Positions 14,848 through 53,804 of a stretch of 64,000 nt of DNA are shown piece after piece. A model generated the notes under the pieces. It had not been told where the DNA came from. It searched no databases and saw only the letters and a list, made by a program, of their open reading frames with translations. Origin of the DNA: Escherichia coli (GTDB lineage Bacteria > Pseudomonadota > Gammaproteobacteria > Enterobacterales > Enterobacteriaceae); NCBI RefSeq assembly GCF_050920415.1, contig NZ_CP169309.1. One strand, 5' to 3'. The position numbers were made by a program, and so were the translations under genes. The stretch's first letter is position 1; every line of letters starts with the position of its first letter.

Positions 14848-15810
14848 GTGATGATCAAAACGCGTTTTTCTCGCTGGCTAACGTTTTTTACGTTCGCCGC
14901 TGCCGTGGCGCTGGCGCTACCGGTAAAAGCCAACACCTGGCCGCTGCCGCCAGCGGGCAGTCGTCTGGTTGGCGAAAACAAATTTCATGTGGTGGAAAAT
15001 GACGGTGGTTCTCTGGAAGCCATCGCCAAAAAATATAATGTCGGCTTTCTCGCTCTGTTACAGGCTAACCCCGGCGTTGATCCTTACGTGCCGCGCGCGG
15101 GTAGCGTGTTAACGATCCCGTTGCAAACCCTACTTCCAGATGCGCCGCGCGAAGGCATTGTGATCAATATTGCGGAACTGCGTCTCTATTACTACCCGCC
15201 GGGTAAAAATTCGGTAACCGTGTATCCCATCGGCATTGGTCAGTTGGGTGGTGACACGCTGACACCGACAATGGTGACCACCGTTTCTGACAAGCGTGCA
15301 AACCCAACCTGGACGCCAACGGCAAACATTCGCGCGCGGTATAAGGCACAGGGAATTGAGTTGCCTGCGGTAGTTCCGGCTGGACCGGATAACCCAATGG
15401 GCCATCATGCGATTCGTCTGGCGGCCTATGGCGGTGTTTATTTGCTTCACGGTACGAACGCCGATTTCGGCATTGGCATGCGGGTAAGTTCTGGCTGTAT
15501 TCGTCTGCGGGATGACGATATCAAAACACTCTTTAGCCAGGTCACCCCAGGTACCAAAGTGAATATCATCAACACCCCGATTAAAGTCTCTGCCGAACCA
15601 AACGGTGCGCGTCTGGTTGAAGTACATCAGCCACTGTCAGAGAAGATTGATGACGATCCGCAACTGTTGCCAATTACACTGAATAGCGCAATGCAATCAT
15701 TTAAAGATGCAGCGCAAACTGACGCTGAAGTGATGCAGCATGTGATGGATGTCCGTTCCGGGATGCCGGTGGATGTCCGCCGTCATCAAGTGAGCCCACA
15801 AACTTTGTAA
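14848..15810 (+). CDS. ldtC: L,D-transpeptidase LdtC (YcfS)
   Basis: LysM plus YkuD domain with catalytic Cys (SSGCIRL); start assigned to GTG at 14848 (ATG at 14851 is an alternative). Confidence 0.9.
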   Translation: MMIKTRFSRWLTFFTFAAAVALALPVKANTWPLPPAGSRLVGENKFHVVENDGGSLEAIAKKYNVGFLALLQANPGVDPYVPRAGSVLTIPLQTLLPDAPREGIVINIAELRLYYYPPGKNSVTVYPIGIGQLGGDTLTPTMVTTVSDKRANPTWTPTANIRARYKAQGIELPAVVPAGPDNPMGHHAIRLAAYGGVYLLHGTNADFGIGMRVSSGCIRLRDDDIKTLFSQVTPGTKVNIINTPIKVSAEPNGARLVEVHQPLSEKIDDDPQLLPITLNSAMQSFKDAAQTDAEVMQHVMDVRSGMPVDVRRHQVSPQTL

Positions 15811-15818
15811 ATCCTGGA

Positions 15819-15853
15819 TAAAAAAATCCCCGCGACACGGCATGTCGCGGGGA
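15819..15853 (-). terminator. Intrinsic terminator downstream of bhsA
   Basis: tccccgcgaca...tgtcgcgggga hairpin; the A-run on the plus strand gives a U-run on the minus strand. Confidence 0.65.
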
Positions 15854-15892
15854 AAAAAATCAGCAGTAGCAGGCATTAATGAGGGTTAATGC

Positions 15893-16150
15893 TTATTTAT
15901 AAATTACTGCTGTTCCATGGAGGGTATTCGGACCGGTTACAGAAGTAATACGGAAAGATTTTGCGCCCATCTCATCCGCTTTTTGCGCCAGCTGCTCTTC
16001 CAGCGATCCCAGATTTGTCCCCGCGTTAGCACTGATAGTACCGACTTTTTGTTGGCCTTCTGGCGTTGACTGAACTTCGACAGCCGCAAAGCTGGCAAAT
16101 GACATTGAGCTTAAAATCGCCGCAGCGATGAGGGTTTTTACGTTTTTCAT
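15893..16150 (-). CDS. bhsA: Stress/biofilm outer-membrane protein BhsA (YcfR, ComC)
   Basis: 85-aa secreted protein, YhcN/BhsA family. Confidence 0.92.
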   Translation of the reverse strand: MKNVKTLIAAAILSSMSFASFAAVEVQSTPEGQQKVGTISANAGTNLGSLEEQLAQKADEMGAKSFRITSVTGPNTLHGTAVIYK

Positions 16151-16218
16151 AATAGTGGCCTTATGCAGATGAATGACGTCGCAAGCAATTACTTAACGAT
16201 CGATAACTAAATGATAGA

Positions 16219-16234
16219 TGTGATCTGGATCACA
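16219..16234. promoter_or_regulatory. Perfect 16-bp palindrome TGTGATCTGGATCACA in the bhsA-comR divergent region (candidate ComR operator or CRP-like site)
   Basis: Exact palindrome; matches the TGTGA-N6-TCACA core. Confidence 0.4.
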
Positions 16235-16390
16235 TACAAGATATTTTTTATAACAATCATTAATTAATTTAAAAATCTTTAAATTTCAGTTAAATAGAAA
16301 GCAATTATTTTTATGGTTTGTGGACTGGTGAACGGAGGTGATTATTTTTATAATAACCTTTCATTCACAGTCACCAGGTACAACGGCATC

Positions 16391-17023
16391 ATGGCAACTG
16401 ACTCAACACAATGTGTAAAAAAAAGCCGTGGCCGCCCAAAAGTGTTCGACAGGGATGCCGCGCTTGATAAGGCCATGAAATTGTTCTGGCAGCACGGTTA
16501 TGAAGCGACTTCTCTTGCGGACCTCGTCGAAGCGACCGGAGCCAAAGCGCCCACGCTATACGCGGAATTTACCAACAAAGAGGGGTTATTCCGCGCCGTA
16601 CTCGACCGCTATATCGATCGTTTTGCCGCTAAGCATGAAGCACAGCTGTTTTGTGAAGAGAAAAGCGTGGAGTCTGCGCTGGCTGACTATTTTGCTGCCA
16701 TCGCCAACTGCTTTACCAGCAAAGACACCCCGGCTGGCTGCTTTATGATCAACAACTGCACCACCCTCTCCCCGGATTCCGGAGATATCGCCAATACGCT
16801 GAAATCACGCCATGCGATGCAAGAGCGCACTTTGCAGCAGTTTTTATGTCAACGACAAGCGCGCGGGGAAATCCCGACCCACTGTGATGTGACGCATCTG
16901 GCTGAATTCCTCAATTGTATTATTCAGGGGATGTCGATCAGCGCACGCGAAGGTGCATCGCTGGAAAAACTGATGCAGATTGCCCGAACGACTTTGCGTT
17001 TATGGCCCGAACTGGTGAAATAA
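16391..17023 (+). CDS. comR: TetR-family repressor ComR (YcfQ)
   Basis: 210 aa from ATG at 16391 (MATDSTQCVKK); N-terminal TetR helix-turn-helix. Confidence 0.92.
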   Translation: MATDSTQCVKKSRGRPKVFDRDAALDKAMKLFWQHGYEATSLADLVEATGAKAPTLYAEFTNKEGLFRAVLDRYIDRFAAKHEAQLFCEEKSVESALADYFAAIANCFTSKDTPAGCFMINNCTTLSPDSGDIANTLKSRHAMQERTLQQFLCQRQARGEIPTHCDVTHLAEFLNCIIQGMSISAREGASLEKLMQIARTTLRLWPELVK

Positions 17024-17085
17024 GGCGCAAAAAAAAGCCCCTCAGCCTGAGCGAATGGGGGGCTAAATTGCAGAATACAGCCTTG

Positions 17086-17625
17086 TTATACTTTGTTATT
17101 CAAAATCAGTTGCCCGTTGCCATCTAACGGGATCTGCGTACCCGGATCGCGGTCCATGCGGATTTTGCCCTGCTGATCGCCAATCTTATAGGTCACATCA
17201 TAACCGAGCATTTTTTCTGACTTGTCATACACCGTTTTACAACGCTGTTGCGTAGTCGTGTAAGTATCGCTTTCCTGGAGAGAGCCCTGGATCTGGTTAC
17301 CGGCATAGCCACCTCCCAGCGCCCCCACAACAGTGGCGACATCTTTACCGCGACCACCGCCAAACTGATGCCCTATCACGCCGCCAGCAACAGCGCCGAG
17401 CACCGACCCGGTAATGCGATTTTCATCCTGCACCGGTCGACGATGGGTCACTGTGACGTTGCGACACTCCTGACGCGGTGTTTTAACCGTTTCCTTGATT
17501 GGGGTTGCAGAAACAACCTGAGCGTATTGCGGGCCACGTTCAAACACGTTCAGACTGGCCACTGCCGCTACGCCCAACGCAGCTGCGACACCAATCCCCA
17601 TACCCGCCAACATTGATTTATTCAC
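17086..17625 (-). CDS. ycfJ: Glycine-zipper membrane protein YcfJ
   Basis: 179 aa from GTG at 17625 with AAGGAGGTG 5 nt upstream. Confidence 0.88.
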   Translation of the reverse strand: MNKSMLAGMGIGVAAALGVAAVASLNVFERGPQYAQVVSATPIKETVKTPRQECRNVTVTHRRPVQDENRITGSVLGAVAGGVIGHQFGGGRGKDVATVVGALGGGYAGNQIQGSLQESDTYTTTQQRCKTVYDKSEKMLGYDVTYKIGDQQGKIRMDRDPGTQIPLDGNGQLILNNKV

Positions 17626-52692: not shown

Positions 52693-53388
52693 TTAAATTA
52701 TCTGCCGTACTTCGTCGAGGGTGGTGGTGCCGTAAGTGCCGAGATCCAGCGTATTACCGTTGTTGCCGCGGATCACCCCCTGCACCAGAGCAAACTGCAG
52801 CGGCTGGGCAACCAGTTGTGTACCACCGCTACTGGCGCTAATCGCTACATTGTAAGAACCGTTCGGCGCAGTGCTGCCGTCAGTCAACGTACCGTCCCAG
52901 GTGAAACTGTGGACTCCGGCAGTCAGTTCACCGATATCAATGGTACGGACAACCGCGCCGTTTTTATCGGTGATGGTGGCCGTAACTTTGTCTGCCGCCT
53001 GCTGCAACTCAACACCAAACGGTGTGGTCGTGGTCACAGCCCCTTCTTCACTGCCGGTTCCGGCAAGAACTGTGGTGCCGGGGATCATCACACCGTGACC
53101 GATCAGGTTACTGGCCTGTAACGACTGGCTGTTATCAATCTGTCCGGAAATAGATCCGAGCGTGGTATTGAGTTTTTCAATCCCGCTGACCGTGCTGATT
53201 TGCGCCAATTGCGACGTCAGCTCGTTGTTTTCCATTGGATTGGTCGGGTCCTGGTTTTTCAGCTGCGCCACCAGCAAAGTCAGAAAACTGCTTTGTAAAT
53301 CTGCGGCGTTGCTACCCGTGAGCGAGCTACTGCTGGTGGTGCTAACGCCGGTATTTGTCGGATCGGTGGTGGTTACCGCAATGGACAT
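52693..53388 (-). CDS. flgD: Flagellar hook capping protein FlgD
   Basis: 231 aa. Confidence 0.96.
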   Translation of the reverse strand: MSIAVTTTDPTNTGVSTTSSSSLTGSNAADLQSSFLTLLVAQLKNQDPTNPMENNELTSQLAQISTVSGIEKLNTTLGSISGQIDNSQSLQASNLIGHGVMIPGTTVLAGTGSEEGAVTTTTPFGVELQQAADKVTATITDKNGAVVRTIDIGELTAGVHSFTWDGTLTDGSTAPNGSYNVAISASSGGTQLVAQPLQFALVQGVIRGNNGNTLDLGTYGTTTLDEVRQII

Positions 53389-53399
53389 AGCTTTCTCCT

Positions 53400-53804
53400 T
53401 TATTGACCGAGCGTAAGGGTTTTCAGCATCATGCTTTTCACCGTGTTGAGCACTTCAACATTGGCCTGATAGCTGCGTGACGCCGACATGGTGTTAACCA
53501 TCTCCCCGACAACATCAACGTTTGGCATTTTCACGTAGCCCTTTGCATCCGCCAGCGGATTACCCGGTTCATAAACCAGTTTGTCCGGAGCCTGACTTTC
53601 TATAACATCGGCAACCTTTACGCCGCCTGTCGCAGCACCTGGCGCAGCGTTAACCTGAAATACCACCTGTTTTGCCCGATATGGCTGTCCATCGGGACCG
53701 GTCACGCTATCAGCATTCGCCAGATTACTGGCCGCCACGTTCAGGCGCTGGGACTGGGCAGTTAACGCCGACCCGGCGATATCAAAAATATTCAGCAGTG
53801 CCAT
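53400..53804 (-). CDS. flgC: Flagellar proximal rod protein FlgC
   Basis: 134 aa. Confidence 0.97.

Follow-up and report, generated by a model that had tools for sequence, protein, structure and literature searches.

Between the divergently transcribed Escherichia coli genes bhsA and comR lies a striking inverted repeat, and the question that it raises is which protein recognizes it and to what effect on the two genes. We addressed this question in a 64,000-nucleotide stretch of E. coli DNA (the whole of which is called the window below), a piece of the chromosome with the gene order ldtC-bhsA-comR-ycfJ according to the annotations of its best E. coli genome matches. The 1.3-kb stretch around the repeat has a match in 5424 of 5426 complete E. 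coli genomes. The two genes are separated by 240 bp, and this intergenic region is AT-rich (31% GC) and contains many short inverted repeats. The RefSeq record of MG1655 has no binding-site feature annotated in the bhsA-comR intergenic region, where the window departs from MG1655 at three positions only, near 16317-16320; there, the window reads GGTTTGTGG and MG1655 reads GGGATCTGG, so that the window strain is without a GATC site at this point, immediately before the predicted −35 region of comR. The features of the locus are collected in Table 1.

Table 1. Features of the bhsA-comR region, in window coordinates; promoter positions are relative to the bhsA transcription start site
Feature	Position	Strand	Description or basis
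bhsA (ycfR/comC) CDS	15893-16150	−	85 aa, DUF1471 outer-membrane stress protein
26-bp imperfect palindrome, candidate ComR operator	16187-16212		−8 to +18, center +5.5; E. coli ATTTAGTTATCGATCGTTAAGTAATT
bhsA transcription start site (A)	16204	−	MG1655 1169019, 54 nt upstream of ATG; 5′ RNA-seq, PMC4488433
bhsA −10 hexamer TATCAT	16211-16216	−	−12 to −7, from the mapped start; conserved
cAMP-CRP site	16219-16234		−30 to −15 of the bhsA promoter, center −22.5
bhsA −35 hexamer TTGTAT	16234-16239	−	−35 to −30; ends on the opening T of the CRP site
A-rich, UP-element-like tract	16241-16250		Beside the upstream block 16251-16262
Upstream block with CGATCGTTA motif	16251-16262		Center ~−52.5; possible second operator (speculative)
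Predicted comR −10 hexamer TATAAT	16349-16354	+	Sequence, conservation, and spacing to the CRP center
comR (ycfQ) CDS	16391-17023	+	210 aa, TetR-family repressor

The preliminary description of this DNA had placed the element at 16219-16234 between the divergent genes and had presented it as a perfect 16-bp palindrome with a TGTGA-N6-TCACA core. Both the coordinates and the genome annotations bear out the location, and the core is exact, without a mismatch in either pentamer. The symmetry had been overstated: on the + strand the element reads TGTGATCTGGATCACA and its reverse complement is TGTGATCCAGATCACA, and the two differ at positions 8-9 (TG versus CA), so that the center is not self-complementary. 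The element consists of two 7-bp arms (TGTGATC and GATCACA) that form a perfect inverted repeat around a 2-bp spacer, and inclusion of the flanking bases extends the arms to 8 bp (ATGTGATC and GATCACAT, 16218-16235). When both strands of the window were scanned for TGTGA-N6-TCACA, this was the single match, compared with 0.03 expected from dinucleotide shuffles, only 3 of 100 of which gave any match. Dam sites (GATC) occur within the 16-mer at 16222 and 16228, and another lies at 16198 in the palindrome centered at +5.5.

To score the element as a CRP site, we derived a symmetrized position weight matrix from Table 1 of Haycocks 2015 (PMC4287617), using the 106 ChIP-seq CRP sites given there besides this one. 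The 16-mer scored 21.39 of a maximum of 21.93 bits, higher than each of the 106 sites that make up the matrix (median, 13.1), and 18 positions of the 22-bp CRP consensus are matched. The next-best match anywhere in the 64-kb window reached 14.27 bits. This second sequence, TGTGGTCGTGGTCACA at 53023-53038, lies in surroundings that match flgD and flgC annotations (701-bp query, 52700-53400); it is apparently intragenic and may be a chance match. A further sequence in the window, TTTGACGGCTATCACG at 27513-27528, is identical to the ptsG CRP site of the enterotoxigenic (ETEC) ChIP-seq table and scored 12.1 bits on the matrix.

Binding of CRP at this locus has been recorded repeatedly. For CRP binding to the ycfR upstream region, PMC5521740 cites an EMSA by Zhang 2007, whose abstract reportedly agrees. 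Table S3 of Shimada 2011 (PMC3105977) lists "ycfQ< >bhsA, TGTGATCCAGATCACA" among the cAMP-CRP targets found by genomic SELEX-chip, and Table 1 of Haycocks 2015 (PMC4287617) gives a high-confidence CRP ChIP-seq peak at 1274886 of ETEC H10407, assigned to ycfQ/bhsA with the site TGTGATCTGGATCACA. A full-text search of the literature for the literal 16-mer returned only the latter paper, and the locus is absent from the CRPBSFinder paper. CRP binding at TGTGATCTGGATCACA, in vitro as well as in vivo, is therefore already established knowledge, and the link between CRP and bhsA has been in the literature since the EMSA of 2007, followed by SELEX-chip in 2011 and ChIP-seq in 2015. The resemblance to a CRP site that the preliminary description had remarked on thus extends beyond the matching core to published binding of exactly this sequence.

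The conservation of the element is informative as to its binder. With BhsA as the query and each species represented by a single genome, a search yielded 80 loci, drawn from Escherichia, Citrobacter, Enterobacter, Salmonella, Klebsiella, Raoultella, Buttiauxella, Lelliottia, Cedecea, Trabulsiella, and other genera, with 74 usable intergenic regions. The divergent bhsA-comR arrangement occurs in nearly all 80 loci, none of which has bhsA without comR, apart from truncations at contig ends; E. fergusonii, reported to be without ycfQ, is absent from the set. A (T/C/A)GTGA-N6-TCAC(A/G) sequence stands at the same place in all 74 species and shows zero mismatches to TGTGA/TCACA in 49 of them. The half-sites are near-invariant, with GTGA at positions 2-5 in 73 to 74 of the 74 species and TCAC at positions 12-15 in 74/74. 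Positions 6-9 are freely variable across the 74 species and differ even among Escherichia with 97 to 98% identical ComR proteins (TCCA, TCAA, and CGCA), lineages that carry TGTGATCAAGATCACA or TGTGACGCAGATCACA, and the 7- to 8-bp arms of E. coli are unconserved in other species. Conservation confined to two pentamers around a free center is the signature of CRP, unlike that of an operator co-evolving with a dedicated TetR regulator. The median matrix score over the 74 species was 19.7 bits, and 73 of these sites exceeded the median of the known sites.

One half of the site is more uniform than the other. Numbered in bhsA orientation, position 10 is G in 74/74 species and position 11 is A in 69/74 (window 16224-16225), while their symmetric partners, positions 6-7, vary. 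As judged from the alignment, the constraint on the promoter-proximal half, including its GATC, exceeds what CRP alone explains. Of 5422 E. coli genomes, 5225 match a 76-bp core (16187-16262) at 100% identity; the surrounding 1.3 kb (15800-17100) shows at least 99% identity to the window in just 26 genomes and 95 to 99% in almost all E. coli. These comparisons speak for a core promoter under strong purifying selection. Three loci in the set depart from the usual comR arrangement. The comR gene of Citrobacter koseri (L021) is apparently split into two overlapping reading-frame segments, through what could be a frameshift or a sequencing error, and in two Buttiauxella species (L042 and L056) another comR-like gene stands some 1.3 kb farther upstream. 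All three loci have retained both the CRP site and the +5.5 dyad.

Where the site lies relative to the bhsA promoter was established in two steps. We predicted the promoter from the alignment, and the prediction was then confirmed by a 5′ RNA-seq start (PMC4488433): the tables of Druzhinin 2015 in that paper give the bhsA promoter as atatcttgtatgtgatccagatcacatctatcatttagttAtcg, with its start at MG1655 1169019. A simple promoter scan of the window had missed this real promoter, whose −35 hexamer matches at 3 of 6 positions only. In other species, the −10 hexamer is TATCAT, TATGAT, or TATTAT and starts 9 to 10 bp from the CRP center in 74/74 species, and the −35 hexamer in most other Enterobacteriaceae is TTGACG, directly abutting the CRP site. 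The CRP-type site thus fills the −35/−10 spacer of the σ70 bhsA promoter, a spacer of 17 bp in E. coli and of 17 to 18 bp across species. Altogether, we regard the 16-mer as a functional CRP site inside the bhsA promoter spacer, with a probability of about 85%.

The position of the site bears on what CRP would do there. Its center at −22.5 coincides with none of the class I and class II positions (−41.5, −61.5, −71.5, −82.5, and −92.5); class I/II CRP-activated promoters such as lac (−61.5) and galP1 (−41.5) have the protein and the motif in common with bhsA, but −22.5 fits neither class. Such a center is incompatible with class I/II activation and typical of repression by occlusion. CRP represses by overlapping the core promoter at proP P1 (−34.5), gal P2 (−36.5), and cyaA P2. 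The bhsA site is like these in its TGTGA-N6-TCACA dyad, in its recognition by a cAMP-CRP dimer, in overlapping the −35/−10 region, and in the competition with polymerase that this entails; it differs from them in being centered at −22.5, wholly in the spacer, with a near-optimal consensus, and repression at bhsA is deduced from position. MerR-family operators also sit in the −35/−10 spacer, and MerR-type spacers are 19 to 20 bp long. The dyad here is similarly centered, near −22 to −24 in the spacer, which is 18 bp in most species; MerR-type promoters, however, are bound by MerR-family proteins, and nothing at bhsA suggests that CRP activates by distorting the spacer.

A closer parallel comes from Klebsiella pneumoniae, in which CRP leaves a footprint 49 to 85 bp upstream of the ATG of KP1_4563, a DUF1471 paralogue, and represses it 3.7- to 6-fold (PMC5521740). 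Direct negative regulation by CRP was documented there by qRT-PCR, a lacZ fusion, EMSA, and footprinting (PMC5521740). KP1_4563 belongs to the same protein family, and its footprint compares with a bhsA site 69 to 84 bp upstream of the ATG; it differs in standing at another locus, where no TetR regulator adjoins it, and the paper gives no start site for it. CRP ChIP-seq peaks are likewise recorded at further bhsA paralogues of the DUF1471 family, namely, ybiJ, yahN/yahO, and yjfY/rpsF (PMC4287617, Table 1). Small DUF1471 envelope stress proteins may be under CRP control as a family.

Taken together, the geometry makes it probable that cAMP-CRP represses bhsA by promoter occlusion. The CRP dimer would recognize the TGTGA and TCACA half-sites, 6 bp apart; at high cAMP, when glucose is lacking, bound CRP would keep RNA polymerase off the bhsA promoter and lower bhsA transcription, and glucose, by lowering cAMP, would relieve this repression. 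ComR, a TetR repressor released by copper, would act separately at the adjacent 26-bp palindrome centered at +5.5, so that a single strong bhsA promoter would be gated by two repressors, CRP and ComR. During stationary phase in LB, cAMP-CRP should be high. The same bhsA promoter is well used under these conditions, as read counts indicate (PMC4488433), and any repression by CRP would therefore be partial or overridden. A search of the accessible papers for crp or cya expression data on bhsA or comR found none, and ycfR and ycfQ are missing from the supplements of PMC5974110.

The palindrome at +5.5 is the best-conserved block of the bhsA-comR intergenic region, ahead of the CRP site, from whose center it lies 27 bp away. 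Its family consensus, ATTTACCTATCGATCGTTAAGTAAAT, is symmetric at 22 of 26 positions; of the 74 species, 67 carry its segment TATCGATCGTTAA (16193-16205) unchanged, and none departs from it by more than one mismatch. It has the dimensions and symmetry expected of a TetR-family operator, and it covers the bhsA start, as suits a repressor; both favor ComR as its ligand. Furthermore, a review has ComR binding "60 bp upstream of comC," in agreement with the palindrome's distal edge (62 bp), although the CRP site is not far off (69 to 84 bp), so that some overlap of ComR with it is conceivable. We came across no assignment of this palindrome to any factor, and on the above grounds we rate the odds that it is the ComR operator as roughly even. 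A further, weaker block upstream of the promoter, 30 bp from the CRP center, has the family consensus TAACGATCGTTA, of which E. coli carries a degenerate form (TAATGATTGTTA); in the species with a match, the spacing of both CGATCGTTA blocks to the CRP site is fixed to within 1 bp.

Genome-wide binding data for ComR (YcfQ) come from a ChIP-exo study that lists only cspA, metR, and uxuA (PMC8464067). Its peak coordinates refer to U00096.2, and we added 1977 bp for mapping. All three peaks then fall within promoters or 5′ UTRs, and no motif was found that they have in common with the CRP-like site or with the +5.5 palindrome, so that they tell nothing about the ComR operator. The nearest solved structure to ComR is that of CifR, and a PDB search returned no ComR-DNA structure.

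Could the 16-mer itself nevertheless be the ComR operator, where a ComR dimer would block the bhsA promoter until released by copper, as the preliminary description had entertained? It is the most striking inverted repeat of the E. coli intergenic region and sits inside the promoter; the usual target of a TetR regulator is its divergent neighbor, ComR has been reported to bind a comC promoter fragment (in the same review), and a short intergenic dyad beside a divergent TetR-family gene is what tetO and the operators of QacR, AcrR, and CifR look like. A dyad with 7- to 8-bp arms near the regulated neighbor is, however, unspecific to TetR operators, and the operator as a whole is not conserved, positions 6-9 varying even where ComR is nearly identical. 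In the 74 species, only the half-sites that CRP contacts are retained, the sequence is near-optimal for CRP and bound by it in vitro and in vivo, and the longer, better-conserved dyad that adjoins it is the better TetR-type candidate. ChIP-exo gave no ComR peak here (PMC8464067), a finding of little weight, since the dataset has no peak anywhere in the known target region. ComR as the ligand of the 16-mer is thus quite improbable, and the element is a high-affinity cAMP-CRP site rather than a ComR operator. The preliminary description had held that the binding protein cannot be told from sequence; comparison across species combined with matrix scoring discriminates clearly between the two. It is also hard to dismiss the CRP site as a chance palindrome, or as a DNA or RNA structure (cruciform, hairpin, or terminator) that serves no particular protein. 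An AT-rich region full of short inverted repeats could supply such a sequence, but only 0.03 matches are expected by chance in the window, and the position is fixed in 74/74 species. The site lies upstream of the bhsA start and hence outside that transcript, no T-run follows it, its 2-nt center is too short for a hairpin loop, and an Rfam search gave no match inside the intergenic region. This possibility is negligible, being refuted by the conservation and the published CRP binding data. At the other end of bhsA, the small RNA BhsB (b4832) is annotated in MG1655 over the 3′ end and terminator of the gene (window ~15821-15920, − strand), and the sub-threshold Rfam matches NsiR1 and anti-hemB fall on the bhsA terminator hairpin (15827-15853); they are probably terminator look-alikes.

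If CRP is the ligand, its main target could still be comR, or both genes, and activation of comR from an upstream position would then create a feed-forward loop that lowers bhsA under carbon limitation. The distance from the CRP center to the comR −10 is 122 to 124 bp in 73 of 74 species, but such rigid spacing may simply reflect the scarcity of indels in a densely packed regulatory region. Were the conserved T-rich block at 16305-16314 the −10, CRP would be near −92, and ~−92.5 is a common CRP position (Haycocks 2015, PMC4287617); the clear comR −10 listed in Table 1 instead puts CRP at ~−135, outside the usual class I positions. Up-regulation of ycfQ has been reported in glucose-limited and stationary cultures, and no comR start was present in the 5′ RNA-seq tables that we searched (PMC4488433). 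On balance, comR as the main or joint target is unlikely, and we retain bhsA as the gene that CRP would control from this site. The ycfQ unit in S1 Table of the Crp ChIP-exo study of Latif 2018 was left unused, as the "TSS" given there for minus-strand units is the left (3′) coordinate (e.g., ycfQ 1167422). The GATC sequences raise the further idea of a methylation-sensitive switch, in which CRP would shield them from Dam, or methylation would alter the binding of CRP or RNA polymerase, and bhsA would be set heritably on or off. Both arms of the site and the +5.5 palindrome contain a GATC, the promoter-proximal one is retained in 69 of 74 species with its G at position 10 in 74/74, and a Dam methylome paper mentions bhsA once. 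Yet GATC belongs to the CRP consensus itself (TGTGATCTAGATCACA) and so needs no extra explanation, and only the E. coli clade has the distal GATC; a switch of this kind is very unlikely. Equally far-fetched is a composite repression module in which a sharp CRP-induced bend at −22.5 would bring together two ComR-type CGATCGTTA operators, at −52.5 and +5.5, with CRP as an architectural co-repressor of a TetR-family protein, possibly modulated by Dam through the GATC found in all three elements. Its one positive support is the conserved geometry, and the upstream block is degenerate in E. coli. Separate action of CRP in the promoter spacer and of ComR, probably elsewhere, remains the reading that we prefer.

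With CRP binding at this locus already on record, our analysis adds three points, each of them modest. The published start and site coordinates, when combined, place CRP in the promoter spacer, which is a repressing geometry; the CRP-type site is conserved in all 74 Enterobacteriaceae species examined; and a separate conserved 26-bp dyad is a better candidate for the poorly defined ComR operator. Current understanding is not changed by this in any surprising way. bhsA is widely used as a stress and biofilm marker, and CRP would add an input of carbon status to the copper input that reaches the gene via ComR.
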